In this document: positions 1-34,845 of the stretch, one piece after another
How the letters are laid out: each line of letters opens with the position of its first letter
Numbering within the stretch: the stretch's first letter is position 1
Assembly (NCBI GenBank): GCA_008632985.1
Contig: QPGO01000136.1
Location: 186,001 to 220,845 of the forward strand
DNA length: 34,845 nt
Reading direction: 5' to 3'
Origin: Psammoneis japonica
Lineage: Eukaryota
The notes under the pieces: generated by a model
Databases searched by the model: none
Told to the model about the DNA's origin: nothing
The model's input: the letters and a program-made list of their open reading frames with translations, nothing else
Made by a program: the position numbers and the translations under genes

Positions 1-2
1 TC

Positions 3-10260: not shown

Positions 10261-10717
10261 CGAGCTGGAAATACTTCAGGAAGCTAGCGCTCGGGGAGGC
10301 GCATCGGTAATGATGTGATGACGACATTATTGACGGGGAATCGATCCTTCTTTCGAGTACCGTAAGGAGTATAAAACTGCATTTTTTTGGTTTTCAGTTC
10401 TATGGTCAATGATCTGTATCCGCATACCTGCGCAAGTGTGCTCAACAAGACATTGTAGCTGCGAGGCACCAGAGCAACGGTTAGAGAGCGTTGCGTACAC
10501 CAACAGTGAATGCACGCAGGGCATTTTTGTATCGATCAGTCAATCTGCTGTATTAAGTCGTACAGTACGAGCTTTAGTTTTATGGTCGATGATCTGAATC
10601 GCCGACATCCCGGCTTCAAAGACATTTCATATAGAGTGTGTGCACCAACTGCTGCGAACGCTCGTGGTTGAACACATACCGTAGCCTATCTCAACCCGTC
10701 GTTACGTCTTTAGCCAC

Positions 10718-12604: not shown

Positions 12605-12962
12605 AAACACTATACCGGTACGAGCATGTGTGCCCCCTTTTCTCAGTAGAGGAGATTGTTTATAATTCTTCTCTCTAGCTTCTGCGTCTGGTAGCAATTT
12701 ACAAAAGTATCTTTGTTTAGAGTTGATTAGTAAGGTGTTTGTGGTGGCCGTGGTTTACTTCACGTCTCTATCGGCGGCAACTCGTCATGGTTTTGTCTCA
12801 TCGCGTTGGGTGGCAGTTGGCAGTGGCGATGAATCAACTACATCCTTCAGTCTTGAATAATATATTTTTAAGAAGGTGGTCCAGAGATTGCTTGGTACAT
12901 TTTTCACGTAGAAACTACCCGAGACCAAGCACGCGTACATTCCTACACAGACAGGGCCTTTA

Positions 12963-15900
12963 TACGAAGAAGCCATCCGGGCTGCAGCCCCTGATGTCGA
13001 CTCCCTCCGCGATCTCATCGCCTCGTGGAACCCACCGAAGCCCGTGCCCCGCTAACTTGCCCCTTCTGCTCCTGGTCTCCTTCTTCCATCGATGCATCAT
13101 CCCTTCCCACCACCACACGCAGCCACCTTCGCCAGGAGCATCCCCGTCTCTCCCTTTCTCATGTGCCTGCGTCCTTCTTTGACACCGCTGGTTTGCACGT
13201 CTGCAGGCATTGCAATCACAGCCAACACACCTGCCCAACCGCCGTCCACCTTCGCAATCACTTGCAGAACAAGCATTTTGCTCCTTGCTCCTCCCTCAAC
13301 ACTGACATTGTTCTCTCGTCCCTCCACAATCCAGGTGACTGGGGCTCCTCGCACAATGGCTCCATGCTCTCGCACCCGATCCTCCGCCTTTCCGAGCTTC
13401 CTGTCGCCGCAAGCTCTCATCCTCCGCCCGCAAGGAACTCTACTCTGCCCTTCATCATGAGATGCGCTGGGTGCTGGCTGCCTCCCAGCCCCTGTCTGAC
13501 CCTTCCCATCTCATTCCTACGTGGCAACGTGACTCTGCGCCCTTCTGGAAGCTTCCTCCACTCTTTGAAGCTCTCATTCTTGCTCCTGTTCCGTCACGCT
13601 CCAAATTTGGCCCTGCCATTGCCTCCTGCTTGTCCCTCTTCCACCATGGCTGCATTCGCCAACTCTGCCAAGAAGCCTGCTCCCACACGCCATGCCTCTC
13701 TTCATCTTCCCCCGACTTTTCTGCTTCCACCTGTTGCCACTCCGCTCAAGTCTGCGCCGATGAAGACAATTTCACTTGGCCTGCTCCAAGCTCACCTCCG
13801 CGCTTCCCACTGCTGCCGTCACTCCTGAATGCCTCCCTGACATCCTCAAGCTCCACCCTCCTCGTCTGCATCCCTCCGACCTCCCTGATCCCCCTTCAAC
13901 TTGCTCGGCCTCCTCCCTTCATGACGAGCCTGTTGAACTCTCCTCCGATGCTCTTCTTTCTGCTCTCTCCAAATGTAAACCTGGGACTGCCGCTGGCGTC
14001 TTCGCTGATTCTACTGACCTCTTCAAGTCCTGCGCCCTCTGTTCCACCAAAACTCTGACAGGAGTTGCTCAATGTCCCCATTTGCCATCCTTCCGTGAGC
14101 TTGTTCTTCTCCTTCTTCATGGCTCCATTCCTCCCTCCATCCATTCCTTGTTTGCTTCCAACTGCTTTGTTGCTCTTCATAAAGATGCCAGTGACCTCAA
14201 CAAGCTTTGCCCCATTGGAGTCAGCGCTGCTCTCCGTCGCATTGCAGGCTCCGTCGTCATGACTCTCTTTGGATCTGAGTTCACTGAATGTCTCCTCCCA
14301 GACGGCCAATTCGGCATTGGTGTCAAAGGTGGCCTCGACTATCTCATTCACTCTGCTCTTATCAACATTGAACAATGTCTTTCTTCTGCTGACTCTGCCA
14401 AGGTTCTTCTTCTTCTCAACCTTGTCAACATGTTCAACGAAGCATCCCGAGACGCCTGTCAACACGTTCTCACCTCCATCGCTGCCTTCCATCCTCTGCT
14501 TCCTTTTTTTGACCTTCTGTGTCAAAGTTCCAATGCTTGCTGGCATCGCCGACCCGATTCTTCCTGGGGCTCCTTTCTTCAAGAAGAGGGATTTGCTCAA
14601 GGATGCCCTCTCGGTCCTGTCTTGCCAGTCTAGCCCTCTCTCTGGTTCTTCGTCCAATCAACCAAGAGCTCCGAGAACAAATCCCTGGCCGATCCTCTGT
14701 CTCAGTTGGCTCCTGCATTGATGATGCTCATGCTTTTCTTCCCCATTCCGTGCTCCCGTGGTTCCTCGAACGCTTCTCCGCCCTCGGCGCTCCCTGCGGG
14801 ATCTCCCTCAACCTCCGTAAAACCAAAAACCTCACCTCCATTGCAGGTGTAGCCCCATCCCCACTCTCCCCCCTTCCCGTGCCGATCCCCTCCGTGCTGC
14901 TCCCTCCTTCTTAAACCCTGCCAATGACCCCTCCTGCAACCCCGAACTCACCTCTGGTGTTTGCTTCCTCGGACAGCCCCTTGGCTCTCATGACTTGCCA
15001 GCTCCTTCCTTTCGGATGCTTCCTCTGCTCTCTCCGATAAAGTCGATGTGCTTCTCACCCGTCTTCATGATAAACAAACCCAAGCTCAACTCTTCAAACA
15101 CTGTTTTGTTCCATCCTCTGCCCACCTCTTGGGGCTGACTTCCATTGCAACTTCGACCCCGACAATCCTCCCGACCCCTTCCTCTGGACTTCTCCGTTTC
15201 AAGACTTCCTCCTCACCGTTGCTCACCGCTTTCTTTACTGCGCCACATCCTACGCCGCTCCTTTTCCTGATCATTCCATTGCCATCGCTTTCCTCCCTGC
15301 CTCCTTGGGCGGGTTTGGTCTTCGGGATCCAACAGCTGCTGCCATTCCTTCCTTTTTGGCATCACTCCTTCGCTCATTCCGCTTTGCTTCGCACGGTGTC
15401 AGCCTGCCGTCTGGTGCTTCTGTTTTCCTTCCGCGCTGCTTTCGGCTCTCCCTGTCTTCCTGGTCCAACCCTTGCTCTTCCCTGCGACTCTGTGTGCTCT
15501 TCCGTCGCTGTGCTCCCGTTCTTGCTTCTGCCTCCACCCTTTCCTCTTCTTCCTTGGCTGTTCTGGTTAAATCGGCCGCTCTTCCTGGCCTGGCTCGCCG
15601 TCTTTACCATGAACATCAACAGCAAGCAGTTGCCTCCATTCTTGCTAACTCATCTTACGATGTGCAATCTTCGCTGTCTTCATTGCTGTCTCCGCTTACA
15701 AGCCTTCCTCTTCATTCCTTCTCCCGTCACTTCCCAAGCTCCCGTCTTTCTTCGGACACCTGCGCCATTGCTGCTCTTCGCAAGCTTCGCCTCCCCGTCC
15801 TCCCTCCGTCCCTTGTCAACACTCCCTGTCCCTGTGGCCATGCAATCCTTGATGCTTGTGGTGACCATGCCTTTTCTTGCCACCGTGCCCACAAGTCCAA

Positions 15901-16776
15901 GCTTTCCAATGGTCTCCGCGACACTGTTTTCATCCTAGCCCAAACCCTGGGACCCCTTGCAGAGTTCTGTTGCTCCCCCAATGACGTTCATCTCGAGCCT
16001 GCCAACCTGCTCCCCACCCGCCCGCTTCTCCATCCCGCCAATGTCGGCATTTCAATTCCCCCTCCTGCCTCCCTTTCTGCTCCTTCCCCCGTCATCATTA
16101 CATTGCAGTGGACGTCACCATCCCCAAAGCTCCTTCTCGCCCTCCTCCAGGTCTGCCTGCTCCCTCTTCTCCTGTTTTAACTGAGGCACACCACTGAGCG
16201 CGAGATTGAAGTTCCTTGGCCCCTCTGCTTCCTCTGCTGATGGATCCCTTGTTGTTTCTTTGCTCAACAATGATGGCATCTTCCTGCTCCCCTTCACCGT
16301 CGATCACCTTGGTGGTCTCGGCTGCTTTGCTCACCGCTTGCTCTTTGGCCCTGCGCCTTCTTCCATCTGCTCTCAGCCCAAGCCACCCTGGTCCTCTTCC
16401 TCTGACTTTCGTCACTCCGTTGCCTCCCACTCCGCCTTCCTCTGTGCTTTGTCATCTCCGTCTGCAATCCTTCCGTCTGCTGACTTCGCATGGCGTCGCC
16501 TGTCCACCGATCACTTTGGGAGCACCTGCCGCACAGCCTCCCCATCCCAGTGGGCCACCCAAACCCTTGGCCACAACGTCGTTCTTCACCTTTCTACGCA
16601 CATCCTCCGATTCACTTCCTCCCTCCCTGCTCCCTCCTCACCTGCACCTTCCTCTGAACGCCCTTTGTCCTGTGTCCTTTGGCCCTTATACTCTGCCGTC
16701 ACTGCAGCCACCTCCGTGCCTCCCTCTGCTGTTCCCTTCCGCTCTACACAGGCTCTCTTGATTTTCTGTTTTAAAA
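12963..16776 (+). mobile_element. 5'-truncated, degenerate CRE-clade non-LTR retrotransposon (copy 1)
   Basis: Colinear with 30962-34810. Two C2H2 fingers (CPFC..HLRQEH, CRHC..HLQNKH), RT motifs (PIGV..LRRI, QFGIGVKGG, NMFN, GFAQGCPLGP, [Y>C]IDD), LPASLGGFGL, CCHC knuckle CPCG..DHAFSC and RLE-like VDVT...LPFTVDHLGGLG. Ends at TTTTAAAA; many frameshifts. Confidence 0.92.
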
Positions 16777-17421
16777 CAGAAAGCATGGCACTCCGCATCA
16801 GCGACTCATGATGACACCACTTGACGACCATGCATCAAAATGGCGTCTTCCGAGTCTTTCTGCAGCTCCTCTTTCACTCACCCGATTGCTCCAAAAGGGC
16901 CAGGGAAAGCTCTTGTGCTTCTGTTGTGATGGAATGGTGTGAACACAAGTTGTTCTTTTCATTCCAAAATCTCAGAACACAGTGCAACAGATTGTCAAGG
17001 TGCACCTGCACATTGGCTGTGCTGTCAGGCAAATCAACGCCATTTGCTGTTCACTCCAGAACAACAAAGGAGACGTGGTGCCCCAATGAATGCACTCTGC
17101 ACTCACTTGATGAATTGCAAAGATGACAACTCTTGTTGCTGAAACTCCTCTTGAGGACCGAGCCACTTTTGGGACTCATCACAATGACCCATTTTTGTCG
17201 TCCCGTCCTTCACCCTCTAAATTTGTTGTGTTGGCCAACAAATGGGGCAAATGAGTCACAAATTTCTGGGTCATAAACTGCCTTGCAGCCAAAAGACGTG
17301 ATTCACACCTTCAGAACTGCCATGATGCACTGGTCTGCCAAATCAAACTCCGCATCAAAATGGATGGACAGTCAGGGAGAACTCTTGTCAAAACTGCACG
17401 ATGCAATGAAATGATGTTTGG

Positions 17422-17914
17422 GGTGGCACGGGCACAAAAGTGGGCCAGATTCCATGCATGCAGAGCTTGGCATGTTTTCCACACAAATCACCAAAGTCAG
17501 CTTGCCAACTTGAGCCATCTCCCGGATGATGGAAACTTGGACATTTCACACAAAAAAGTGTTTGGACCACTTGGTTGCACTGCCCTCAACTTGTTCATTG
17601 AGAGAAGTTGCAAGTTTTCATGTGTTCTTTGTTTGGTGTGGCTCTTTAAAACCCAGTTGTTGTGATTTTAGCACCTTTCTGATTGGATTTGTTGCATGTC
17701 CTCAGAAACCTGTGAAAACTTGTGACTTCTCTTCACAAACAAGTCAAGGGGAGTGCAGCTGAGCAGTCCAAACACTTTGTCATGTGAAATGTCCAAGTTT
17801 CCATTGTCTGGGAGAGGGTTCAAGTTGGCAAGCCAACTTTGGCAATTTGTGTAGAAAACATGCCAAGCTCTGCGTGCACAGAATCTGGCCCACTTTTGTG
17901 CCTCCTGCACCACC
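17422..17914. mobile_element. Foldback/MITE-like element: ~200 bp inverted arms (17422-17622 and 17711-17914) around a ~90 bp spacer
   Basis: ggcacaaaagtgggccagattc...cagagcttggcatgttttc...ggaaacttggacatttcaca...aagttttca is matched by its reverse complement. No credible coding capacity; no TSD seen. Confidence 0.8.
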
Positions 17915-19979
17915 GCGAGATTGACTCCGAGTCACGAATCTTGAATCCTGCATCATGACCCGCTTGACTCACTCAAAGTTCTTGAAAGAGTTTGAAATTG
18001 CTGCAGCTGCTGCACTGCAGAGATTTTGACCCCCACCAGCCAGTGCCATGAAGTGCAAGAGAGAGAAGATCATTGTCGGCCTGTCAATCTTTGAACCAAT
18101 GTGTCACGAGCACACCCTGGGTGGGTGTTGTTCATGACAGCACACACTTGAAAAAGGGCTGACTGTCCCAGTTTTGTTTTGCCACAGAATTCCCAAAATT
18201 CCCCGGGATTGCCACCTTTCACCACGACTTTCCATGGAAGCAAAAGTGGAGCCGCACATGGTCAACAAAACATGGCAGACTGATTGACGATGTTTGTTCT
18301 TCCCTTTGACCTGTCTTGTGCGCAGAATGCAGTGTGTCATTTTTTCTTCTTGTGTCATGTGGTCACAAATGCAAACCACAATGGCTCTAGAGCAAAGGCG
18401 CCAGGGCAAAAACAGAGCCGCACATGAGCAATGTCAACATGTGTGATTCAATGGCTGAGTTCATTCTTCCCTTGCTCTGCCACAAGGGGCCACTTTGTGT
18501 CAATTTGTTGATGCATCTGTCATGGTCATTGGTGGCAGAGTGTGCTGGCTGGCTGGACAATGTGTCAAAAAGCACACCCGCCCACATGAAATGCAGCGAG
18601 AACTGCCGCGCTGCACTCATTTTTTGTTCCTTCCTCTGACCCCTTTCAGTCATTCCTTCCCACTGAATTGCCTTCATTTCCTGGGTGCTCCCCCAAAGGG
18701 CAAGGCAATTCCCCCTCACCCTCACCATTTTGGGGAATCCCCAAATGGGCACAAAGCCAAACCAAGCTGGATGTTCGTGGAGCACCTTCATTTCACGGGC
18801 AAGTGCAAGCGACGGACAAAATTCAGAGTCAACTCTCCAGTGGGACCCATGGCAACTGCAGCATCAGTCAACTTGGCACCCCCAAATTTTCTCTGGAGCA
18901 GCACACAAGTTCACATTGGAAAAACCCAAGCAGCGCGGTGTGGGAAAACACGCGACGGTGGTTGCATTGCGAGACATCCATCGCTGATGCTGTGCACAGC
19001 ACAGTGACATGAAAGACAACTTGCCAGTGCTGTGTCATCTGCAGGTGGAAACAGTGCCACGCCCTGCATGATCTTTGGTCAATGAAGCCAAAAAATGCGT
19101 GAAAAGTGTGCAACAATTTTGAGGCCATTGCGGTTGACAGAGGAGCACCCAAGTTCGCATTGAAAACACTCAAGGGCAGCATCAAACACTTGCACAAAAG
19201 AGGTTTGGTTGCACAGGGAGGCTTCAGAGGCGATGCATGATTGCAGAGGTCAGTGTGGGCTCACAACCCAACAGAGACTCCAGTGTGTGGTGAAGCGACC
19301 TTTTCCACTGACACTCCCCCAGTTTGGGACTTTTGGGCTTGCGCACTGGTCAAAAGTTGGCCGGATCAGTCTGGGTTGACCGTTGACCACTTGGCATTTC
19401 TGATTGGCGCAATCACAAATTGCTCTTGTGGGAGAAAGAATTCTTGATCCGGGGGGTGGGCAATGACCACAAGAACTGCATGTTGTCGGCACTCCGCACT
19501 TTGTTGCTGCTCCTCCACAGTGCTGTAGAGTCGTAAAAGCGGCTTACGATCATGTGACTTGCCGGCATGCCCTCGATTTGTCACAGTGAAAATTGTCCAG
19601 TTCACACACAATGCCAAATTCTTGATGTCACAAAAGGAATCAGTGTGTGGGAAAGAATTTCAAAAGCAGACAAAAATGCCAATTCCACATCAGATTGCTC
19701 AGTCGCACACAACATTCATCTGGAAGCTTGCCAATTTGAAAGTCTTTCAAATGTCCATTGTAACAATTGTCATCGTGATTCTGGTCATTAAAAAGTGTTG
19801 TGACAAAGAGTCTCTCGCAGCATTCCACTGTTCTCCCCCAAGACATTTTCACTTGGCACCCTGCCACTGCAACCCTCACACAAAACGAAAAACAAGAATC
19901 GAGTCTTTAGAGCCACTGTTGAGTCTCATCCACTGAACACTCACAAAACAGGATCAAGCCAAATCTCAAACAAGAAAAG

Positions 19980-22170
19980 ATGAAAATCATTGGCAAGGGT
20001 GTTTCTCTCTTTCTTGCTTTTGCTCTTTGCGATGCTGCTGGTGCGTGGCATTGCTGCATGGCAAATCGTGCTTGGGCGACAGCGCCTTTTCGATGAGACA
20101 AGAGCGGCCAACAAATTTGCATCTTTTTTGTCTTTGTTCTTCCTCAGACCTGACGGCAAAGCCGGGACTCAGGGATGGTGCTTCTCCAGAGGCAAGCAAC
20201 AACACCGTTCCCCACAGCGATCATTCCCTTTCGTCGGTCGTTCTGACAACTTCTGCTCATTCGGTGACAACTTTCACATGTGTTCTCGCAGGACGTCGTC
20301 AACCCTAACGCTGAAGCCGAGTCCGACAGGTTGCTCGCTGTAAGTGGATAAAAGATTTCATGTCGTTTAGTTGAACAAACTTTTTTCGTCATTTTCTAAA
20401 ACATCCGAATTGCTCAAACGTCTTTCAGCATGCTTTCCTGCTGAGGGGGCGTGCTGTGAAACTAAACGTGGTCATCTGAAATGCACAGTCACACAGCAAC
20501 GCGACTGTCAAGGTCGAGGTGGCCACTGCATTGGAGATGGAAGCAGCTGCAGACCAAACAAGTGTGCAAGCATCCCAAGTCCCATGCCACCAACTACGCC
20601 GAGTCCTCCGACACCAACGATGGATGGAAAGGAGGGAGCCTGCTGCTTGAGGTTCCGGCAGGTCTTGTCTTGATGAAAAAGAGTTGCTGTCTCCCTGTTT
20701 TAACCCCAATGCTTTGCCACCTTGCTTTGTGCAAATCACATTTTGCATTTACAGGGATCGATGCTTTGTTGCTTCGGAAGACATGTGCAAGTTTAAGAAC
20801 GGAATTTACCGTGGGGACGGCACGGCAAGTCTCGTCACTGTTTTGAGCACAGAATGAACATGCATGTGCAGATCTTGCAATGACCCATTTCGTTCTTTCC
20901 TCTTGTTTTCAGACCTGCATTTCCGGTGGCTGTAGGACCAGGGGTGCATGTTGCTTGGGTTCTGGTGAATGCCTCCCCTTTGAAAAGAAAAACACGTGCC
21001 AAAGGGCACTCGGTGGCACCTTCCAAGGAGTCGGCACAACTTGTCAAGACGGAGTGTGCCGTGTTGCCCCTCCTTTTGGTCCTGGTGCTCCGCCATCTGG
21101 TCCTGGTGTGCCTCCGTCTGGACCTGGTGCTCCTCCTTCCGGTCCTGGCACTCCGCCGTCTGGTCCTGGAACTCCGCCGTCTGGTCCTGGAACTCTGCCT
21201 GTCCGGTCCTGGTGCTCCTCCGTCTGGTCCTGGCACTCCCCCTTCTGGCCCGGGCACTCCTCCTTCACCCACGCCACCCACTTGGCAAGAGGGAGCTTGC
21301 TGCTTGCCCTTTGGAAACAGAACTGCGATGTTCTTTCCAAAAAAGACTGCACTCGTCAGGGTGGAGCACACCTCGGAGACGGCAAGACGTGCACCACTGC
21401 AAGATGCCCAAGGCAAGGAGCCTGTTGTTGTGACAATGGCACTTGTGGCAGGACGACATTGTCTGGATGCGACAATGGAGTCTTTCAGGGTCGCGGTGGC
21501 GAATGCAAAGACGAGAATGGCTCAACCATTTGTCCAATGCCAGCTCCCACTCCATCTCCCACGCCTGCCTCCCACACCTGCTCCTGCGCCTTCTCCCATG
21601 GCTGCTCCCACACCTGCTCTGACGGGAGCATGCTGCATGCCGTTCAGACGCAACATGTGCGAAGTTCTCTCCAGTGCAGACTGCACTCTTGAAGGAGGAG
21701 CACACCAGGGAGATAATCAGGCGTGCCAAAGGACACGCTGTCCAAGGTGTGGAGCTTGCTGCCTTGAAGATGGCGATTGCTTCTTGAGCACCTTGGCTGG
21801 TTGCAACAATGGCAAAGTCTTTCAGGGTCGCGGCACTGAATGCCATGATGGCACCGGTGCGCCTGTGTGTCCGGCGGCCCCACCCACGGTTGAAGTGGGC
21901 CGCTGCTGCCTTCCCAACGGCGATTGCGACGCAACCACCCCTGCAGAATGCAATGATCAGTTCGGAGTGTGTCAGGGAGTTGGTGCTGCGTGCGGTGGTT
22001 CCGATGATCATTGCAGCGAAACAGGAAGTTGCTGTGTGGATTTCAAGCCATTCTGTGTTGATGTCAATGTTGCGGTTTGCAAGAAGAAGCGAGGCGACTT
22101 CCAGGAAGACACCACATGCTTTGACACCTGTTGGTGTCCCGGTGAGGCCTGGGCTCGGGGATGCCAGTGA
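19980..22170 (+). pseudogene. Decayed multi-exon gene for a secreted protein with nine Cys-rich GACC modules and Pro-rich linkers
   Basis: Signal peptide MKIIGKGVSLFLAFALCDAA from ATG 19980; intron-like spacers (GTAAGT at 20340; donors at 20658 and 20825 read GCAGGT and GCAAGT). Repeated G(A/R/S)CC-x-C-x-C-x-G-x-(Y/F)xGxGxxC modules; at least three frameshifts after 21200. Confidence 0.75.
21078..21267 (+). repeat. Coding minisatellite, 9 x 21 bp, encoding GPG(A/V/T)PPS
   Basis: Units such as ggtcctggtgctccgccatct with third-position variation; unit 6 carries a 1-nt insertion. Confidence 0.92.
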
Positions 22171-23313
22171 CCGAAATCGCAACATGTGTTTTAGCGAGGA
22201 GACATGTGATGTGAGAACAAGCCAGTGATGTTGTGCCACCATGACACCTCTGCACAATCACACCTGTCCGAGCCCCTCCGCAATGAGAAGCAAACAGGGC
22301 TTGGGTCCAAGTTAAAAAAAAACAGTGTCCATGTTTTGTGAACATTGCACAAGCAGTGGGTGTCCGGCAGCAGTTTCAAGGCCTCAAATGTTCATTGGTG
22401 GTGACTGACATGTTCTCAGAGACCTCGAACAATCCACTCATGACGACATGTGGCATGGTGGAGCATGACAGTGCCAATTCAAGACCCCAGAATAATTCTT
22501 CCAACTGTCTTGGAAGTCACCATGAGCGGCCGCCGGCCACAAGGGTTGCGCACTTCCTTCATCCAAAATGACGACCTCGAGACAGCGACAGCCACAAGCG
22601 GCAAAAGTCTCCACTTGCTCAAACACTCTCGTGTGTCGCAATCATGTCCCAAACAGCACACAAAAAGTCTTTCGGCCGAACAGTTTGAATGCAATCAATC
22701 GGACATGAGCACAAGACAGTGAAAGGAAATCCAAAAACTTCTCCATCAGGACCACCAGCAGCTTGCCCTGATCAACCGCCAAGGCAACACATCGCATTGG
22801 AGCTGAGGAAAAGAAATTTCGGCCAGGACAAACTCGTCATTCACAAATGGCATGGGAACTAAATTGGAGAGCCTGTGCTCAGCAAGTGCACACAGGTGCT
22901 GGTCACTGCATCCGACAATCGCAGAACAGCGTGCGTCCAACCTTCAACAACAAGGAAGGCAGAGTGCAGTCTTGAATGAATGGCTGGAACAAACTTGCAA
23001 CAATGCTCTAAGACAGGTTCGAAATCTGTCTGCATCGCTTGATGAAGATCGTCTGTCGTCTGCCGTGTCGATGCCTGGCGATTTTGCGTCTGTCATGCAA
23101 TCATTCAGAAAAGACTGTCGTCCCATGGCACCCCATGGCACCCCTTCGCAAGTGGAGAATGTGGTTTTAATGTCATGGTGATGTGATGTTCACGTCATGG
23201 ATTTTTCATGCGTTGTCATGTCACTTGATTTTGCATTTGCACACAAATGCCAACAGCAACAGGAAAAATCCTGAACCACACTCTTTTCTCCCTGAATCTC
23301 AAGGACGAGTCGT

Positions 23314-23930
23314 CTGGAACCGACCACAGGCAAAGTCATTTTTTGACCTTTCTCGCAACCACGAAAAAAGCACGTGTCACATCGGATCAACCATGATGAT
23401 GCCTTGCGACTCTTCCCCAATGCCTTCCCAGGACACCGTTCCCACTGGCACTGTTGACAATGGCGCTGATGCAACAGGCAATGTCATCACTTCTGTTCTG
23501 AGTGGCCTGATGTGTGCAAAACAAGATGCTGCAAACTGACGCTGTTGTCTCCATGCTCCACTGCCTCCCACAGATGCTGTCACAAATGCCAGCACCGCCC
23601 CTGTGTTTCTTTTGACTGGCATGCCCGACACTGTTGCTCACTCCCTCAGTGCAACAGGTGCTGTTGATGCTGTCATTGTCTTGTGCCAACAACATCTGCT
23701 GTCAATTGCTGCAAACTGACACTGCCATTTCCATGCTGCGCTGTCTCCAACAGACAATGTTGCAAGTGCCAATGCTGCACCTGCACTTGGCTTCACCAGC
23801 ATGCCCGACACTGTTGCTCCTGCCATCACTGCATCATGTTGCAGGCGCGCTGTTGATGCTGATCCACAATCAAGTGCAACCAACTCACACACTGTTTTCC
23901 ATTCCCGCCCCACTGCCTCCCACAGATGCC
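23314..23930 (+). repeat. Left inverted arm with three ~170-180 bp internal subrepeats
   Basis: cctcccacaga-like core at ~23564, ~23743 and ~23915; translates as DSSPMP..DT..SVL.GLM.AK.DA.N...PPTDAVTNAS like the right arm. Confidence 0.8.
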
Positions 23931-26479
23931 ATCATGAGCACCAAGATGTCAATGTCTCCCCCATCATCCCCAACCCCTCCCAATGCTGCTGCACCCCACA
24001 TGGGCGGACGGTTGCCCACTTGCTCTGGCAGTTGTCACCCAAATGCAACTGCCGTGTGATCCAGAAGACATCATTTTTTTTTCTCCTGATCCCACGCCTG
24101 TTGCGCAGGCTCCAACTTGCAATTGGTCCACTCTGGTTGTCCCCTCTCCTGAACGCATTCCCTCTGAGCATTTGTGTGTTGTTGTTGAAGGCATGGAAGG
24201 GCAGGTTCTCAAGCCATCAGGTTTGCAGCTTTGCACTCAAAACAGAAAACAGAAAATCAAGGAAGAGGCAACATTGGAGCTGGACAAATCCACCTTGCTT
24301 TCTTTTCTTCAAGACCCTGTTGTTGACTCTTCTTTTTCTTCTGGGTCTTTCTTGCCTCCCAATGTTCCTTCATTGATGAGAGAAATGCAACTCTAAATCA
24401 CTGTCCAACAACAAGCAAAAGCAAAATGCTTCCAGTGACTCAGCCGAGCCACCCGTCCCCGTGCAACATCACCTTCAAAAGCATTTTCAGAAAAAGTTGT
24501 TCCCTGAAGTTGATTGGGCATTGTTGGATTTGAACCAACTCCTTGCACACCATCACAGTCATTTGATTCTGGAGAACATCCTTTGAGTGCCGGTCAGTTC
24601 CAAGATTGTTCTTTTGATTTCTTCTTCCCATGACACTTTTGCACTGACGTGGAAGCCCGTGCTCACTGCCATGTGTGCTGGCTCTCCCTCCATTGCTGTT
24701 TGCACTGGCAAGGAATTCTTCTTCATCATTGAAGCAACCATTTCCAGCCAGGCCCACCAAAAGAAACTGCAAGAAAAAGACTCAACTGCAACAGAACTGG
24801 AGCACCTTTGCACTCGCCAAGGCGGTGGTGCTGTCGTTGTTGCACCGGTGGGCAGTGCATCTGTGTCTTTTGAGGTCAAGCACTGTGACATGTTCCACTC
24901 CTGTGCAACGTTGCACATGTGGGCTGCACTCTCCCGCACAACAACCACATGCGTTTGCTGCTGGGAAAAGTGAAAAACACAAACCATCATGCTGCAATGC
25001 TCAATCGGTGTGTGCAGGAACTGCGGGGCAATGGCCGTGCTGTTCATGTCCTTTGCCACAATGAGTGTGACCCACTTTTAAAGGACAGCAAACTGGGTGC
25101 TCAGCTGGCCCATTGCAAACAAGGTGGCATTTCTGCAGATTGGACTCGGCAGTTGTTTGACATTGGCACAAGCAACACCACGTTAAATGACTTTGTTTCA
25201 TTTGTCAGGGGCTCATGCAAGACTGCCATTTGTTCCTGTTTTGGATGGTTCATGGCTTTGACCTCCCCAATTCTTGATCAGGCTGCTGTTGTGGCAATCA
25301 CTTGGCAGTTTTGCAAAACAATGCCATTCCACTGCATTGCATTGAGCACTTTGTTGAGCTGCGAGGCAAAGAAAAACCTTTCCACCAAACAACAGCTCCT
25401 TCCCATTTGGGATTGGTTTGTTTTGCATGTTTTCATGTCCATCATGCACATCCAAAATTCTCATTCTTTTGCATGATGGTCCTGCCGCAACACTGCTGCC
25501 ATGTGTGGATCATTGGGCTTGACATCGAGATCAAAGCTTTCTGTGTGTTTTGGACAAGCGGCAACACAACAAACGCCATTGCAGAAGACACGTTTGTTTG
25601 CCAACTGTGCAACTGTCATGGACAATGCAAACAAGTCCTTGATTGCTTCTGAAACCTTTGGCGCACCCACATTTGACAATTCTCAGGTGCATCTTTGCCC
25701 CATTGTCATGCCATTCCACATGTTTTGTTTCTGCATTCATGGCACCAACTGTCCATTGATTTCTCATGCTTCTTGAGGTGGTGGAATTGCTTGAGTTTCA
25801 GTGCAACCGCCAGTCCTCCAATGTCGCCAAGACCACCTCTTGAATGTTCATCAAGCCGCATGTCCAGCCCCTTGCCCAACTTTGCATCTTGTCCAACGGC
25901 AATCTCTCCACCTGACTCCATCACTCATGTCAACCAATGCATTCCTTTGCCATGTGGCATGCCCACATGTGAGTCCAACCCTGCTTTGCTTTGTGCTGAT
26001 GCATTGATTGCAGCCTTCCAAACCTCCAATGCATTTCTGGAAGCTGCAGATTCAACTGGCACCCGTGCAGCCCGGCATGCATCAATTGTGTCTCTTGCAA
26101 CTGTGGCACACATGCACCGAAACTGTGTTCCTTGGGTTGGCGCTGCTTTTCTTTTCAGCCCACCTCTGGTGTAGAATCCATTGATCAGATGCAGGTCCAA
26201 CAAAAGCTCACACCCAACTGAGCGGCAAAGGGATTCTGCCACTCCTGCAATTTCTTCCAATGACACGTGAAACACAGGTTTGGTGTGGCACACCTCCACA
26301 TGTGTCCATCTTAATTCCTCCAGTTTCCTGTGAGGATGAGACGACAAGCAAAGGTGCCGGCAAGGTCATGCTTGGTCTGCTTCAGCTGTTTGACATTGTC
26401 AAAGCTGTGTTGGCACACAACAAGGTGTCTCGGGAGAATCTGTGCAAGACGTGGTCCTGTCGGAAGACTGTCAAAAGCA

Positions 26480-28055
26480 TTGGCAGCACAGAGAAAGCAA
26501 GGCTGGAATGGCAAATTGGCATGGAGAGAATCAACAAAGGCGGCAATGTGATGTGCCTTTTGTTCCTTGGTTAGTGTCCCAACAAGAGAGACAATGTCAA
26601 ACAAATGGAAAGCGTCGCTCCAATCCAACCATGTTGACAAGTTTGCCTGAAACGTCTCAATTTTGGTTCAGTGGTTTGAGCAGAAAATGCACTTGTCTGC
26701 ATCAGAACCAGCTGCAAGCAAGGCAGAGAGCATGTTGGAGACAATTGTGAATGGGCAATCACCACAAATGTCACCAAGAATGACACATGATGATGCCTCA
26801 TGTCATCAGGTGATGGCCAATGGCAGTGGTCAATGTTTCTCCCAATCAAATTCTCTGTGGACAAGACAATTGGGTGTGTTGCATGTTGCTGTCATGAGAA
26901 GCAAGGGAATGGAATGCATTGAGTGCACCCACAAAAGAAAGCAATCACGGAGGCCCTGGAATTTGGACCAAAATGACAGGCACAAAAAGATGAATTTTGT
27001 GTCCAAGGCAATCATCCGAAGCAAACCATTGTGCAAAATGCCAAGAAGGAGCTGCAGCAGCACATCATTGGCAACTGTCAACTGAGGCAAGCAAAACAGG
27101 AAAACCGTGCCATGCACTGAAGGTGAAAGCTGCCACATCCAGTCAAAGAACCTTTGCATGTGAGTTGGATTCTTTGAAATCTCATCCAAATGAAAGGCTG
27201 AGACAGGTCCATGTGTTGCTGGCCTTGTTTGGCTCATTGCATTGTTTTGCGGCACTGATCCAAACCAAGGGACAACAGAGGGATGACAGCAAGGATGATG
27301 CCTTGAAGACAAACCCCCACAATGTCACGAACAAGGGATTTGCCACCACCAGTGGGTCAGACAAGCAAGAAAGGATGGATGTTTTGGTTCTGCATTGATG
27401 CAAGGATGCTGCACCCCATGTTTTGCTGCCAAGCATGAGGGTGCTTGCCAAAGACATCAACAGAGATGCCAACACAGGAATTGTGGATGGCGTTGACTGG
27501 CAGTGCAGGGTTGGCATTGACAGCATCTGTGGGAGGTGGTGGGGCAAGAATGGAAAGCAGCGTCAGTTGTTGGCACCACTCAATTGTGGATGTTGTTGGC
27601 ACAACAAAGTGGCAGCATCAACAGCACAACAGCATTGGGCATGCCCATGGACCCCAACGCAGGTGCAGCATTGGCATTTGTGACAGCATCTGTGGGAGGC
27701 GGTTTGGCGAGGAAACAACAGTGTGAGTTGGCGTCATTTAATTGCAGATGTCATTGGCACAAGTCAATGACATGTTGTCAACAGTGCCGGTGACAGCAAT
27801 GGCATGAGCAACAGCATTGGGCATGCCGGTGGACCCCAATGCAGGTGCAGCACTGGCATTTGTGACAGTGTCTGTGGGAGGCGGTTTGGTGAGGAAACAA
27901 CAGCGTGAGTTGGTGGCATCTCGTTTTGCACGCATGAGGCCGTTCAGAACAGAAGCAATGATGCTGCCTGTTGTGCCAGTGTCATTTGCAACAGTGTCAG
28001 CAAGAATGGTGTCCTGCTGCAAAGGCATTGGGGAAGAATCGTGAGACATCAACAT
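26480..28055 (-). pseudogene. RecQ-family (SF2) DNA helicase remnant with repetitive N-terminus
   Basis: Minus strand: Q-motif VFGKHPHAWQ; motif I LLV*PTGGGKSL (PTGGGKS at 27356-27336); motif Ia AVIPLLSLGLDQ; Ib FLFCLPQ; degenerate II LRMIALD; III IPLLLMTATC; IV KCIFCSN; then LVGTLTKEQK..FLCAANA. Stops and frameshifts present; motif VI not seen. Confidence 0.85.
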
Positions 28056-28132
28056 GGTCGAGTGGAGTTGACGCGTGCTTTTTTGTGGTGTGGAAATGGC
28101 CGAAAAAGTGTCTTTGGCTGTTCGGTTCCAGG
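27518..28132 (-). repeat. Right inverted arm with three ~165-180 bp internal subrepeats
   Basis: tctgtgggagg core at ~27526, ~27689 and ~27871; reverse complement aligns to 23314-23930. Confidence 0.8.
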
Positions 28133-29373
28133 CAACTCCAGATTTGTGGGCACCATGGGATGGGAGTTTTTACTTGACGACATGTGCACATTCACAAGAA
28201 CATGAGCACATCCGACTCAACGCATGTGATGTCACAACACATCGCCCACACCCAGCACATCCCATGGGACCACGGGACCATGGGCAGTCACGTGGCGGTC
28301 TCCACTTCAGTGCTTCAGAAGTCAAGTCATGATGGCAGCTTTTCTGCCACAAGAAAAGCATTGCCAGATCGATCAAACCATGGCGGCTCCTCTGTCTGCC
28401 ATGCAATGCAGCAGTCGGTCCATGTTGTACAGCAGTTGCTTTGTGGCAGGGCATCGGGCTTGCACTTTGCGCGTACCGGCACGTACGGTGACTACTCTAC
28501 ATGCCCACCGGTGGAGAGAGGAGCACGAGGTGCGTGCTGGAGCGCGCAGCTGTGGGTGACGAAAACGAAATGAAAACAATGGTAATTCGTGTGGCGATGG
28601 CGTCCCATGATGGATGCAGTGGCTCTTTGCTGCACCTCCCGAAGTGGCCTCCCGACCCTCCGCCATGGCCATCCTTCTTTTTGCGGATCCTTTTCCCTGC
28701 CGTTCTTGCCTTTGCCATCGTCTCCTTTCTTCATTCCCTTTCGGTCACTCCCTTCGCTCCTTTCGCCTGTACATTTCTACGCCCCTTCTACTGGCCCCCA
28801 GTTTCCACGATTGCCAATTGCCCTTCCAACTGCTCACTCCATTGCCCTTCCACTTTTCTTCACTCCCTTTCTTCATCCCAACAACTGCCCCCTGCCATTT
28901 CCCTTTCTGCTCTTCCTCATGCCCTCTCTCCTTCTCTGCCTTGTTCGTTTCTTTTCCCTGTGGCCCCTCTCTGCCCCCTGACCTCTTCCCCATTTCCTCC
29001 TCCAGCAACCCCTTCAATTGCCCCCCTTCCTCCCATGACTCCCTTCGCGCCTTTAGTTGTGACTCCTCTCCTATCGTTCCACATGCCTTTCTATGCCCCT
29101 TTGAACACGATTGCTTCCGCACTCCTCTACAGCTTCCCCTGCCCTTCGGCCCTCTCCACTGCCCCTTTCTCTTCCATGACTCCCTTCGCGCTTCTGCTTG
29201 TGCCTTCCTCCCTGTGTTTCCATGCATCCTCTACGATCATTTGTGTACGATTGCCCACGTCATGCCCTCACCTTCCCTCCTCCTATCTTTCTACACGTTC
29301 TGTGACCTTGTCGCTGTTTTTGGCGATCCGCACACAACAACGACTCTCTGCAACTTTCTCTTCTCGCTTGATC

Positions 29374-31054
29374 ATGTCCACTCTCGCCTCCGCTCCTCCC
29401 GCTGATGTCAAGCTTTTAGCTCAGGTCCTTCATCCCACTGACCTGCCTGATGTGCCTGCCATTGCTCTCACGTCTGATGTCATTCGTGACATCATTCTCA
29501 AGACGCTGGAGCATCACAGTCGGCGCGTCTCTCCGCTCCTCCTCACTCTTGGCTCTGCGACGCTTGCCGAAACCAAGAAGCGCTCCTGTCCTCACCAGAA
29601 TCAGTGGGCGTCCTACTCTCACGTTGCTCTTCACCCGGTGACCCCCGATGGCACCACCTTTTCCTTCGAATCCTTCCGCAGCCAAGCGCTCTCCTTTCTC
29701 CTTCAGAAATGGCATCTACACCCTGCGTCGCACTTCACCCCCTTCCGCTCCACTGGCTCCCCTTCCAATTTTCTCCACCCTGACTTCTCTCCGGTTTTGG
29801 CTGTGGACAATCCTTGGGCTCGGCGCTGTGCCTTTGTGATCCCGGCCTGCAACTCTTTCGAAGAAAAGGCTCATGGTGTCCTTGCTGGCCCCTCTTCAAC
29901 CCTCTACAGTTCTTCTCGACGTGCTTCTGAGTTTCTTCTATCCCGCCTTTATTCCTTCCTTGTTGGCAAGATCTCCAGCACTGCGACCAATCCCATCCTC
30001 CAATCCTTCCGAGACTGTCCCACCTTTCTCAAATCTCGTTGGAATTCGTCCTTCGCAATGCCCTGCTAACTCGGCCCAGGCGCGACGCCGCTCTCTTCCG
30101 GTTTTTTACATTTCCACTGCCTCCGATGCCGTCTGGAACACCCCACTTCACATCACTGATCCATCCAATGCGCCGCCTGCCTCCTTCTCCATCCTGGGGA
30201 CCTCCACTGCCATCATTCCCTTCCCAGCCCCGGCCAACTTTGCTTCCACCTACAACGCCCTCTCCAAGCTCATTTCGCGTCAGAGCAACATGAAAGTGGT
30301 TGTCTCTGACCGTCTTCTTCTTCCTCTCACCCAACCTGGCATCAGTCGTCTCCTTGCCACAACCAATCTTCGCTCCCTCATCCCCATCTTCTCTGCTCAT
30401 GACTCCCTCCCAATCAAGCACAAGCTGCTCTTTTTCCCGTCTCCGTGCACAATTGCTCTTGTGGATGCCAACCCACATGACTGTCCCGGCTTTCCCTTGG
30501 ATCTCCTTACCTCTGTGGCGGAATCTACCCATGACGACAGTGTGACTTCCCCATCCTGCGCCTCTGCTGCTCTTCAGCCGCCCGCTCCCTCTCGAGATTC
30601 TTTCTCGTGTCGTGCCCTTGAGCTGCTTGCTCAAGACTGGCAGCTCCCCAAGCCCCAAGATCCGCTCCCTGCTGCTGCATCTCCTTCCTCCCATCCTCCC
30701 CAAGCCCGCTCCCTCACCACCGAGCCTCCTCCCTCCAAACGTCCCCACTCTTCTCCCGACACTCTCTCTCCGCCCCCCGCCATTCCTGCCGTAGTTTTGC
30801 AGACTTCTCCGCCCCCCACCACTCCCGATGCAATTGTGCAGACCGAATCTGATGACTCGGTTTCTCCCCAACAGTCCCAGCGCGAGATGGAACTCTTGGA
30901 TGTCCTTGATGCCTTCGCAGGTGCTTGCTGCCCGGCCCGCCTTTCTACCTGGCAACCTTTCTACGAAGAAGCCATCCGGGCTGCAGCCCCTGACATCGAC
31001 TCCCTCCGCGATCTCATCGCCTCGTGGAACCCACCGAAGCCCGTGCCCCGCTAA
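29374..31054 (+). pseudogene. Retrotransposon ORF1 (unknown function, Pro/Ser-rich C-terminus), one frameshift at ~30025
   Basis: MSTLASAPPADVKLL...QSFRDCPTF continues in the next frame as SNLVGIRPSQ...SWNPPKPVPR* (TAA 31052-31054); the last ~30 codons are conserved in copy 1. Confidence 0.6.
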
Positions 31055-34000
31055 CTTGCCCCTTCTGCTCCTGGTCCCCTCCTTCCATTGATGCCCCTTC
31101 TGCTCCTGGTCCCCTCCTTCCATTGATGCATCATCCCTTCCTGCTTCTGTGTGCAGCCATCTTCGCCAGGAGCATCCCCGCCTCTCGCTTTCTCATGCAC
31201 CTGCGTCCTTCTTCGATGCCGCTGGTTTGCATGTCTGCAGGCATTGTGATCACAGCCAATGCACCCACCTGTCTACCACCCACCTTCGCAATCACTTGCA
31301 GAACAAGCACTTCGCTCCTCGCTCTTCCCTTGACACTGACATTGTTCTCTCGTCCTTCCATAATCTGGGTGACTGGGGCTCCTCGCTACAATGGCTCCAT
31401 GCTCTTGCACTCGAGCCTCCGCCTTTCCGAGCTTCCTGCCGCCGCAAGCTCTCGTCCTCTGCCCGTAAGGAACTCTACTCTGCTCTTCATCAAGTGACAA
31501 GCTGGGCACTGGCCGCCTCCCAGCCTCTCTCTGACCCCTCCCACCTCATTCCTACGTGGCAACGTGACTCTGCTCCCTTCTGGAAGCTGCTCTTACTCTT
31601 TGAAGCTCTCATTCTTGCTCCTGTCCCGCCACGCTCCAAGTTTGGCCCTGCCATTACCTCCCGCTTGTCCCTCTTCCGCCGTGGCTGCATTCGCCAACTC
31701 TGCCACGAAGCCTGCTCCCATGCGCCACGCCTCTCCTCATCTTCCCCCAACTTTTCTGCTTCCACCTGTTGCCACTCCGCTCAAGTTTGCGCCGACGAAG
31801 GTAACTTTCACTCGGCCTGCTCCAAGCTCACCTCTGCGCTTCCTGTTGCTGCCGTTACTCCTGAGCGCCTTCCCACCATCCTCAAGCTCTACCCTCCTCG
31901 CCTGCACCCCTCCGACCTGCCCAATCCTCCTTCAACTCGCTCGGCCTCCTCCCTTCATAATGAGCCTGTTGAGCTCTCCTCCGATGCTCTTCTTTCCGCT
32001 CTCTCCAAATGTAAGCCTGGGACTGCTGCCGGTGTCTTTGCTGATTCTACCGACCTTTTCAAGTCCTGCGCCCTCTGTTCTGCCAAAACCCCAACAGGTG
32101 TTGCTCAACGCCCCTGCTTGTCATCCTTTCGTGAGCTTGTCCTTCTTCTACTCCATGGCTCCATTCCTTCCTCCGTCCATTCCTTATTTGCTTCAAACTA
32201 CTTTGTCGCTCTGCATGAAGATGCCAGCGACCTCAACAAGCTTCGCCCCATTGGCGTCGGCACTGCTCTTCGTCGCATTGCCGGCTCCGTCGTCATGACT
32301 CTCTTTGGTTCTGCATTTGCCGAATGCCTCCTCCCAGATGGTCAATTTGGCATTGGTGTCAAAGGTGGCCTCGATTATCTCATTCACTCTGCTCTTGCCA
32401 ACATTGAACCGCATCTTTCTTCTGCCGACTCCACCAAGGCTCTTCTTCTTCTTGACCTCGTCAACATGTTCAACGAAGCATCTCGAGATGCCTGTCGACA
32501 CGTTCTCACCTCCACCCCTGCCTTCCATCCTCTGCTTCCTTTTTTTTGACCTTCTATGTCAAAGTTCCAGTGCATGTTGGCATCGCCGACCCGACTCTTC
32601 CTGGGGCTCCTTTCTTCAAGAAGAGGGATTTGCCCAAGGATGCCCTCTCGGCCCTGTCTTCGCCAGCCTGGTCCTCTCTCTGGTTCTTCGTCCGATTAAC
32701 CAAGAGCTTCAAGAACGCATTCCTGGCCGTTCCTCTGTCTCAGTTGGCTCCTGCATTGACGATGCTCACGCTTTCCTTCCCCATTCCGTGCTTCCATGGT
32801 TCCTTGAACGCTTCTCCGTTCCTCGGTGCCCCCTGCGGAATCTCCCTCAACCTCCGTAAAACCAAGATCCTCACCTCCATTGCCGGTGTTAGCCCCATCC
32901 CTGCTCTTCCCCCTTCCCGCGCCGATTCTCTCCGTGCTGCACTTTCCTTCTTAAACCCCACCAATGACCCCTCTTACAACCCCGAACTCACCTCTGGTGT
33001 TCGCTTCCTTGGACAGCCCCTCGGCTCCCACGACTTCGCCACCTCTTTCCTTTCCGACACTTCCTCTACTCTCTCCGACAAAGTTGACATGCTTCTCACC
33101 CGTCTCCATGATGAACAAACCCAGGCTCAACTCTTCAAGCACTGTTTTGTTCCATCCTCTGCTCACCTCCTTGGAGCTGACTTCTGCTGCAACTTCGACC
33201 CCGACAATCCTCCCGACCCCTTTCTCTGGACCTCTCCGTTTCAAGATTTCCTCCTCACCGTTACTCACCGCTTTCTACACTACGTCACTTCCTTCGCCGC
33301 TCCTTTTCCCGACCACTCCATTGCCATCGCCTTCCTTCCTGCCTCCTTGGGCGGGTTTGGTCTCCAGGACCCAACAGCTGCCGCCATTCCTTCCTTCTTG
33401 GTGTCGCTTCTCCGCTCGTTCCGCTTTGCTTCGCACGGTGTCAGCCTGCCATCTGGCGCTTCTGTTTCCCTTCCGCGCTGCTTTCGGCTCTCCCTGTCTT
33501 CCTGGTCCAACCCTCGCTCTTCCCTGCGACTCTGTGCGCTCTTCCGCCGTCATGCTCCCGTTCTGGCTTCCGCCTCTGCCCTTTCCTCTTCTTCCTTGGC
33601 TGCCCTGGTTAAATCGGCCACTCTCCCTGGCCTGGCCCGTCGTCTCTACCATGAACATCAGCAACAAGCAGTGACCTCCATCCTTGCTAACTCATCTTAC
33701 GACGTGCAATCTTCACTCCCTTCATTGCTGTCTCCGCTTACAAGCCTCCCTCTTCATTCCTTCTCTCGTCGCTTTCCAAGCTCCCGCCTTTCTTCGGATG
33801 CCTCGCTGTTGCCGCCCTTCGTAAGCTTCGTCTCCCCATCCTTCCTCCGTCCCTTGTCAACACTCCCTGTCCCTGTGGCCATGCCATTCTGGATGCCTGT
33901 GGTGATCATGCCTTTTCTTGCCGCCGTGCTCACAAGTCCAAGCTTTCCAATGGTCTCCGTGACACTGTTTTCATCCTAGCCCAAACTTTGGGTCCTCTTG

Positions 34001-34785
34001 CAGAGTTCTGTCGATCCCCCAATGACGTTCATCTTGAACCCACCAACCTGCTCCCCACCCGCCCGCTTCTCCGTCCCCGATGTCGGCATTTCAATCCCCC
34101 CTCCCGCCTCCCTTTCCGCTCCCTCCCGCCATCACTACATTGCAGTGGACGTCACCGTCCCTCAAGCTTCCTCTCGCCCTCCTCCAGGTCTGCCTGCCCC
34201 CTCTTCTCCTATCTTAACTGAGGCACACCACTCGAGCGCGAGATTGAAGTTTCTTGGCCCCTCTGCTTCCTCTGCTGATGGATCCCTTGTTGTTTCTTCG
34301 CTCAACAACAATGGCATCTTTCTGCTCCCCTTCACTGTAGATCACCTTGGTGGTCTCGGCTGCTTTGCCCACCGCTTGCTCTTTGGTTCTACATCCCCCT
34401 CCGTTTGCTCTCAGCCCAAGCCACCCTGGTCCTCTTCCTCTGACCTTCGTCACTCCGATGCCTCCTACTCCGCCTTCCTCTACGCTTTGTCATCTCCGTC
34501 TGCAATCCTTCCCTCTGCTGACTCCGCATGGCGTCGCCTGTCCGCCGATCGCTTTGGAACACCTACCGTACAGCCACCCCATCCCAGTGGGCCACCCAAA
34601 CTCTTGGCTACAACGTTGTTCTTCACCTTTCTACGCACATCCTCCGATTCACCTCCTCTCTCCCTGCCCCTCCTCACCCATACCTTCCACAAAACGCCCT
34701 TCGTCTTGCGTCCTCGACCTTTTACTCTACCGTCTCTACAGCTACCTCCGTGCCTCCCTCTGCTGTTACCTTCCGCTCTACATAG
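31024..34785 (+). pseudogene. Retrotransposon ORF2: 2x C2H2 zinc finger, reverse transcriptase, CCHC knuckle, restriction-like endonuclease; frameshifted
   Basis: KLRPIGVGTALRRIAG, QFGIGVKGG, LDLVNMFN, EEGFAQGCPLGPVF, SCIDD, VRFLGQPLG, LPASLGGFGL, RP.DV..IAVDVT, LPFTVDHLGGLG; stop TAG 34783-34785. Confidence 0.88.
31058..31127 (+). repeat. Exact 35 bp tandem duplication
   Basis: gccccttctgctcctggtcccctccttccattgat occurs at 31058-31092 and 31093-31127; it is single in copy 1. Confidence 0.95.
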
Positions 34786-34845
34786 GCTTCCTTAATCTTC
34801 TATTTTAAAATCATCATCACTATATTCAAACACAAACACCCATGA

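Follow-up and report, generated by a model that had tools for sequence, protein, structure and literature searches.

Before 2026, no process was known to remove the dinucleotide TpA selectively from parts of a eukaryotic genome. A preprint of April 2026 (bioRxiv 10.64898/2026.01.13.699255) describes, in its accessible text, such a process from a mutation-accumulation experiment with the chlorarachniophyte Bigelowiella natans: in only some of the lines, the mutation rate of two integrated viral regions is about 1000-fold that of the remaining genome, and of 231 de novo changes there, 230 are A→G or T→C transitions, every one of which turns TpA into TpG or CpA. The same text reports that low-TpA coding sequences of B. 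natans are enriched for reverse transcriptase (RT) and DDE domains, and it proposes an ADAT2-like deaminase without testing it there; neither CpG nor diatoms are mentioned in that text. Here we analysed a 34,845-nucleotide window of the diatom Psammoneis japonica (contig QPGO01000136.1, positions 186,001 to 220,845; coordinates below count from the first letter of the window). A nest of repeats at 12957-34810, composed of two copies of a retroelement and 11.7 kb of unclassifiable repeats between them (the middle block, 16777-28491), is strongly depleted of TpA beside genes that retain it. The original prediction made from this DNA proposed a repeat-targeted TpA→TpG/CpA hypermutation as a candidate genome-defence system and held that no pathway of this kind had been described, a statement now out of date because the preprint, in its accessible part, reports the same signature in B. 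natans.

The diatom signature matches the TpA hypermutation of B. natans and is a new case of a phenomenon described once before, in another supergroup lineage. In both cases the change is TpA→TpG/CpA only, falls on both strands and hits foreign or mobile DNA beside normal genes, as far as the accessible text of the preprint goes. The long-term trace given there is likewise TpA depletion with a gain of CpA+TpG, and 11 of the 34 1-kb windows here, seven of them consecutive from 21001, lie within both of its cluster thresholds for 1-kb windows (TpA observed/expected ≤ 0.43 and CpA+TpG ≥ 1.52). The two cases differ in the host, a rhizarian there and a stramenopile here, and in the kind of evidence, since new mutations were measured there and the process is read here from decayed old copies. 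They also differ in depth, with TpA observed/expected ratios of 0.02-0.09 here versus 0.45 in the giant-virus region of B. natans, and in the CpG decay that runs alongside here and is not mentioned in the accessible part of that source.

Other known systems share parts of this signature. Repeat-induced point mutation (RIP) of ascomycete fungi also consists of transitions in a dinucleotide context, hits repeats and mobile elements and spares neighbouring genes, but it turns CpA into TpA and enriches A+T, and both RIP indices are inverted here: TpA/ApT is 0.07 in the middle block and 0.21 in copy 1, and (CpA+TpG)/(ApC+GpT) is 1.79 and 1.73, respectively. Deamination of 5-methylcytosine (5mC) at CpG likewise makes a self-complementary dinucleotide decay to TpG/CpA in silenced repeats, and does so in the same stretches here, but it is unable to remove TpA, and related elements elsewhere decay at CpG without TpA loss. 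Hypermutation of double-stranded RNA by ADAR is an A→G change with a preference for a 5′ U; ADAR, however, acts on RNA and marks one strand, whereas the signature here is symmetric and occurs also in repeats without an RT. In dinoflagellates, another lineage of the stramenopile-alveolate-rhizarian (SAR) group, 5-hydroxymethyluracil made by TET/JBP enzymes is enriched on transposable elements and tied to silencing, and thus provides an example of enzymatic thymine modification on mobile DNA, for which the accessible text reports no mutational consequence (PMC11572971). With this precedent, damage to thymine has to be considered seriously beside deamination of adenine. No report of TpA depletion in a diatom or another stramenopile was found in the literature searched, which left most subscription journals outside.

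The repeat nest differs sharply in composition from the gene-bearing part of the window. The middle block contains 42 TpA, compared with 733 ± 20 in 200 shuffles (minimum 668), and its longest TpA-free runs extend over 1226, 1167 and 1138 bp. The TpA observed/expected ratio is 0.06 in this block, 0.19 in copy 1 and, for copy 2, 0.37 in the part shared with copy 1 and 0.26 in the 5′ extension. In the middle block, TG and CA reach 1.76 and 1.69 of expectation, A+T is 50.1% compared with 52.0% in the genes, and AT, AA and TT stand at 0.86, 1.30 and 1.21, indicating that A and T are not lost in general. Across 1-12956 the TpA ratio is 0.52, or 0.56 when an island at 4643-5640 is left out; the CpG ratio there is 0.97 (island excluded), and the spacers between genes have TpA ratios of 0.8-1.05 in 300-bp steps. 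The contrast first drawn between a TpA-poor block and normal genes therefore stands for the block (0.06-0.37 versus 0.52), but the genic part is not uniform, as the island holds one TpA in its 998 bp.

The borders of the depleted stretches are sharp. The TpA ratio drops to 0-0.2 within one 300-bp step of the element edge at 12957, and it falls to the same range across the island, in which the ratios are 0.29 for CpG, 1.95 for CA and 1.54 for TG. Together with the values of the intergenic spacers, these borders bear out the claim that the process acts on repeat or silenced DNA and spares the neighbouring genes. The island might be a decayed fragment of a leucine-rich-repeat (LRR) gene, which we offer as a lead only: its best feature-based Atlas matches are all LRR clusters (0.91-0.94), but recognition is low. 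GT-type intron starts are seen in the island as well. The pattern in the island implies that the process also reaches DNA outside the large repeat block and outside recognisable transposons.

Comparison of the two retroelement copies resolves the signature at single sites. The copies, 12957-16776 and 30956-34810, lie in direct orientation and are 88.6% identical over 3734 bp; their global alignment (3811 aligned columns) contains 413 mismatches (360 transitions, 53 transversions). Of the 59 TpA in copy 2, copy 1 retains 22 and has TG at 17 and CA at 14, while the 31 TpA of copy 1 correspond to TG four times and to CA twice in copy 2. At 38 further sites, one copy has TG and the other CA, as expected if a single ancestral CpG or TpA decayed separately in each copy. 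Double differences at pyrimidine-purine steps number 39, versus 6.5 expected from single-site rates; the controls gave 13 versus 6.6 at purine-pyrimidine steps, 10 versus 17.2 at pyrimidine-pyrimidine steps and 0 versus 3.5 at purine-purine steps. All ten example pairs that we searched, out of 11 quoted in the original prediction, sit at aligned positions, confirming that the copies differ repeatedly at TA.

The differing fraction at TpA is 0.49 of A-bearing and 0.42 of T-bearing sites, compared with 0.03-0.23 in other A/T contexts; at CpG it is 0.18-0.32 per site. Per site, A→G is 4-16 times higher at TpA than in other contexts, so the equal rates in all contexts that had been named as a refutation are not seen here. 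An unpolarised context table, in which C/T differences before A (16/243) and A/G differences after T (21/248) lie near the average of 9.4% and CpG/TpG is the highest class (62/396), was considered as a refutation of the TpA enrichment and rejected once per-TpA-site rates and polarity were available. The scarcity of TpA and the abundance of TG/CA hide the TpA effect in such a count.

The direction of change was read from the conceptual translations of both copies, aligned with eight related proteins; a codon was taken as informative if one state occurs in at least three relatives and the other in none. This applies to 44 of the 129 codons with an amino-acid difference between the copies, among which 12 support TpA loss and none TpA gain. 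Five of the 12 are single changes that destroy TpA (two Tyr→Cys and one each of Lys→Glu, Thr→Ala and Leu→Pro), and seven are TG/CA double differences at which a codon for the conserved residue requires the A or T of a TpA (three Asn→Asp, two Thr→Ala and one each of Leu→Pro and Val→Ala). As TG/CA sites are about ten times commoner than TpA, equal per-site rates would give many TpA gains. CpG loss is polarised in the usual direction, with 16 single changes and three double differences. Tyr accounts for 0.6% and 1.1% of residues in the two copies versus 1.6-2.8% in the relatives, and Cys for 4.3% and 3.1% versus 1.1-2.0%.

The relatives thus place TA as the ancestral state, as had been proposed, although two of the signs first cited for this direction do not carry it. 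GCAAGT, taken as a decayed GTAAGT splice donor, occurs seven times in the block and seven times in the shorter genic part; the CIDD version of the RT YxDD box is ambiguous, its Cys being TGC in both copies, which it consequently does not separate. Read by eye, the first residue of this box is Y in five, F in one and V in two of the eight relatives. As a DNA outgroup, the related loci of a metagenome contig scan (80 loci, 416 1-kb windows) gave for the block only matches of 66-79% shorter than 260 bp and one 35-bp match at 91%.

The change is symmetric with respect to strand. TpA corresponds to TG 21 times and to CA 16 times (p = 0.51), and two inverted-repeat pairs in the middle block carry the same discordance: the pair 23307-23784/27659-28138 has 19 TG/CA discordant sites in 475 bp, and the pair within 17422-17911 has ten in 190 bp, which make up 20 of its 26 transition differences. 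A process specific to one chromosome strand was rejected, since the inverted repeats show 11 versus 8 and 3 versus 7. The symmetry and the involvement of unrelated repeat pairs imply that the process acts on DNA, on both strands and beyond the retroelement. Of the strand-symmetric, TpA-specific A→G change that had been claimed, symmetry and context are retained; adenine as the target is not established, because TpA is its own complement and A→G is indistinguishable from T→C.

We favour, at a probability of roughly 75%, a real targeted process in which an enzyme makes a lesion at TpA in double-stranded DNA, steered by the silencing machinery, and replication fixes it. The pathway that silences these stretches would also direct the lesion to TpA, and the damage would be either deamination of adenine, giving hypoxanthine, or oxidation of thymine, giving a G-pairing base; we see roughly even odds between these two. 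Either strand would be hit with equal chance, and replication would then convert A:T to G:C, to be read as TpG or CpA depending on the strand hit. The signature itself, its direction, TpA restriction, strand symmetry, sharp borders and overlap with CpG decay are direct results of the analysis, whereas the enzyme, the damaged base, a tie to silencing marks and a putative defence role are inferred. A preference of 5-hydroxymethyluracil for TpA is described in the older literature. Cytosine methylation in diatoms lies mainly on repeats and silent genes, according to the accessible part of PMC12344493, and the co-located CpG decay, the sole indication here, suggests that the depleted stretches are methylated and silenced. 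A further-reaching version, which we think doubtful though conceivable, is that diatoms lay down a symmetric, CpG-like mark at TpA (a modified A or T) together with 5mC on silenced mobile DNA, that mutagenic decay of this mark erases TpA, and that the same system in Rhizaria would make it an old SAR-wide or eukaryote-wide defence. If this version were true, the enzyme should be findable by comparing genomes with and without the signature.

Several points weigh against a targeted process of this kind or soften the evidence for it. Copy 1 has the larger loss of CpG (59 versus 32) and also of TpA (31 versus 6), which links the two decays, but the ratio of TpA to CpG loss is unequal between the copies (odds ratio 2.8, p = 0.035), indicating no strict coupling; this inequality is at most a hint of activity in only some lines. 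Over the element and some stretches of the middle block, contigs of at least 80% likeness add up to 10-70 times the depth of single-copy DNA, a summed look-alike depth that is a weak proxy and not a copy number. Stretches of the block near single depth are as TpA-depleted as those at high depth, which leaves targeting of repeats inseparable from targeting of silenced domains as the trigger. The polarity rests on 44 nonsynonymous codons and on relatives that are only 31-49% identical, with no family consensus, and in the seven double cases a TpA ancestor is the parsimonious one, other ancestors being possible. Codon positions 1, 2 and 3 carry 84, 55 and 242 of the differences between the copies, which blurs the rate estimates; 208 of the differing codons are synonymous and 129 non-synonymous. 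This third-position excess implies that a large share of the 11% divergence predates insertion and built up in active lineages subject to purifying selection, so that rate ratios from this copy pair are only rough. Run X1, the k-mer contigs of a 2019 public run that we used as a check on the assembly, lacks a library record, and its source may be the assembled sample.

The CpG decay bears on the main rival, a passive by-product of biased replication or repair in methylated compact chromatin (T:G repair favouring G:C, or a specialised polymerase) to which TpA would be most exposed. As had been predicted, 5mC-type decay is also present: the CpG ratio is 0.44 in the middle block versus 0.97 in the genes, 0.67 in copy 1 and 0.77 in copy 2 (range over the affected stretches 0.27-0.77), and the copies show 91 CpG-linked single differences (CG-TG/CA). 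Differences linked to TpA form a minority, and roughly one in two inter-copy mismatches falls outside TpA and CpG contexts. Over 70 windows of 500 bp, the TpA ratio follows the CpG ratio closely (Spearman 0.84) and is inversely correlated with that of TG/CA (-0.81), a tight co-depletion that speaks for a by-product, and very-short-patch repair in Escherichia coli, which is held to deplete CTAG via CCAG/CTGG, would be a parallel. A context-free T:G repair, however, would raise G+C and deplete AT, AA and TT, contrary to the composition given above. Among the 80 related loci, moreover, many have CpG ratios of 0.6-0.9 with normal TpA, which implies that CpG decay alone does not bring TpA loss and that 5mC by itself is insufficient. 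Activity in only some B. natans lines, as the accessible text of the preprint has it (bioRxiv 10.64898/2026.01.13.699255), further suggests regulation. We therefore regard a by-product as unlikely. In the reading that we favour, CpG decays here via the known deamination of 5mC and TpA by a second process at least as fast.

On the sense strand of the element, CpG corresponds to TG 62 times and to CA 29 times, an asymmetry probably explained by the third-codon-position bias (242/381 differences). T/C differences before C number 88/909, and the complementary class 3/196.

A base-calling or polishing artefact, in which a TpA modification of heterochromatin is misread as G or C by a long-read caller, is considerably less probable still. 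The assembly method is not on record, X1 may represent the same sample, and X1 holds only 0.54 of the 31-mers sampled from 12500-22499, all of which leave room for such an error. Against it, 24155-28547 is matched by four X1 contigs at a depth of ~57-65 that deviate at 16 letters over 4396 bp, and this stretch has 13 TpA where a gene-like frequency would give well over 100. X1 thus reproduces the TpA-free sequence and argues against a long-read artefact, although it is not fully independent. Misreading would also need to affect about 95% of sites, and it would not yield the third-codon-position bias, the Tyr→Cys/His changes at conserved residues or the co-located CpG decay.

ADAR-like A-to-I editing of repeat RNA, fixed in DNA by reverse transcription, would suit a retroelement family, and the TpA context fits the 5′-U preference of ADAR, a point raised also in the accessible discussion of the preprint. 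Editing of sense RNA, however, gives TG only, and CA is equally common here; the repeats without an RT and the LRR-like island are hit even harder than the retroelement; and conserved residues are disrupted by differences between the two inserted copies, a sign of decay in place. ADARs are, to our knowledge, known only from animals, and we give RNA editing very little credence.

No more credible is an intrinsic or selected composition, by which the elements would have arrived TpA-poor or TpA would be avoided because of UA-cutting RNases or stop codons. Its starting point is that the genes here are also below 1 (TpA 0.56), as in most genomes. The median TpA ratio in the 80 related loci, however, is 0.69 per 1-kb window (1% quantile 0.27), relatives of the element stand at about 0.6-0.8, and none of the 416 windows falls within both preprint thresholds; the depletion is thus not a family trait. 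The twofold TpA gap between the copies (31 versus 59) at 89% identity, and the TG/CA discordant sites, which show independent conversion after duplication, also speak against an inherited composition, as do decayed non-coding sequences with ratios down to 0.02-0.06, values beyond any selected avoidance that we know of. Three short related loci (L005, L008 and L010) have TpA at 0.26-0.33, CpG at ~0.6 and TG at 1.5-1.8, and may represent a milder form of this decay in another organism.

Generic GC-biased drift or gene conversion among repeats would give the net A:T→G:C change but can be set aside, given an unchanged A+T content without depletion of AT, AA or TT and the 4-16-fold excess of A→G per site at TpA.

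The diatom signature indicates that the TpA process is not peculiar to one species, and here it is more complete, affects retroelements and runs beside CpG decay, which would link it to chromatin carrying cytosine methylation. A contrast of genomes with and without TpA-erased blocks would offer a route to the presumed deaminase or dioxygenase, and diatoms are transformable for knock-outs. Practical consequences follow as well: as TAA and TAG stops disappear, TpA-erased repeats open long false open reading frames (ORFs) and lead gene callers to over-predict, and repeat ages computed from CpG decay or plain divergence would be wrong in such genomes.

The retroelement is of the non-long-terminal-repeat (non-LTR) type, as judged from an RT domain, the lack of terminal repeats and a 5′-truncated copy with a common 3′ end. 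The part shared by the copies encodes, with shifting frames, a protein related to eight proteins, P0121-P0128 (900-1416 aa; 31-49% identity), and tblastn with P0121, P0123 and P0126 covers copy 1 at 13016-16613, again with frames shifting. RVT_1 scores 13.9 bits (E = 0.045) in the element copy, under the Pfam cut-off of 29.6; of four relatives scanned, P0121, P0126 and P0127 pass this cut-off and P0123, at 25.2 bits, falls below it. Zinc-finger-like and endonuclease-like motifs in the relatives were read by eye only. We found no terminal repeats and no flanking direct repeats for the element. Both copies end in TTTTAAAA, and the summed depth of look-alike contigs increases toward this 3′ end. 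Copy 2 reaches ~2.4 kb further upstream, ~28575-30955 being absent from copy 1; at its 5′ edge a single-depth contig ends at 28547, a loose end lies at 28574 and a high-depth contig starts at 28633.

Features of the analysed window, with coordinates counted from its first letter
Feature	Positions	Strand	Basis or remark
Host genes and intergenic DNA, internal control	1..12956		Ordinary TpA and CpG once 4643-5640 is excluded
TpA-free island among genes	4643..5640	+	Dinucleotide counts; looks like a decayed LRR
Retroelement copy 1 with RT gene, 5′-truncated, more decayed	12957..16776	+	Alignment, tblastn
TpA-erased block of unclassifiable repeats	16777..28491		Composition; ORFs without Pfam domain
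Inverted-repeat pair, 84% alike	17422..17911		Alignment
Arm 1 of 74%-alike inverted-repeat pair	23307..23784	+	Alignment
Arm 2 of 74%-alike inverted-repeat pair	27659..28138	-	Alignment
Retroelement copy 2, longer, less decayed	28575..34810	+	5′ start approximate; 30956-34810 common to both copies
Degenerate RT ORF of copy 2, six frame segments	31068..34662	+	31-49% identity to P0121-P0128
First codon of RT YxDD box, TGC (Cys)	32752..32754	+	Alignment with copy 1 and eight relatives

Pyrimidines make up 69% of the element sense strand (12957-16776 and 28575-34810; C 39%, T 30%), and the encoded protein has a high content of Ser, Pro, Leu and Phe. The same skew is present in the closest metagenome relatives (L002, L003, L006, L009, L036 and L077; purine 0.28-0.36), and since transitions are unable to produce it, the skew is a family trait. 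Overlapping plus-strand ORFs of 150-525 codons fill 13025-16811 and 28492-34808 in more than one frame; they are mostly spurious and arise because TAA and TAG are almost gone and A is scarce. Copy 2 carries a 38-bp tandem duplication at the start of its RT ORF (31057-31094 = 31092-31129), which is absent from copy 1.

Pfam searches with 60 ORFs of 4350-31051 returned no family at E ≤ 0.01, and the middle block remains unclassified. Within it, 20849-22200 is G+C-rich (0.55-0.65), with short internal direct repeats at ~21062-21266 and a 428-codon open frame without a Pfam match. The region 17422-17911 is a near-palindrome of two 190-bp arms around a spacer of ~90 bp, at which look-alike contigs reach a depth of up to ~2000, compared with ~60 for single-depth pieces. 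A dinoflagellate origin, which the appearance of the TpA-free DNA had suggested, is rejected by the host genes. For the M3 peptidase ORF at 6769-8124, the best matches with a name are from pennate diatoms (Bacillariaceae, Nitzschia and Pseudo-nitzschia) at ~70-72% identity, and the closest match overall is 80% identical.

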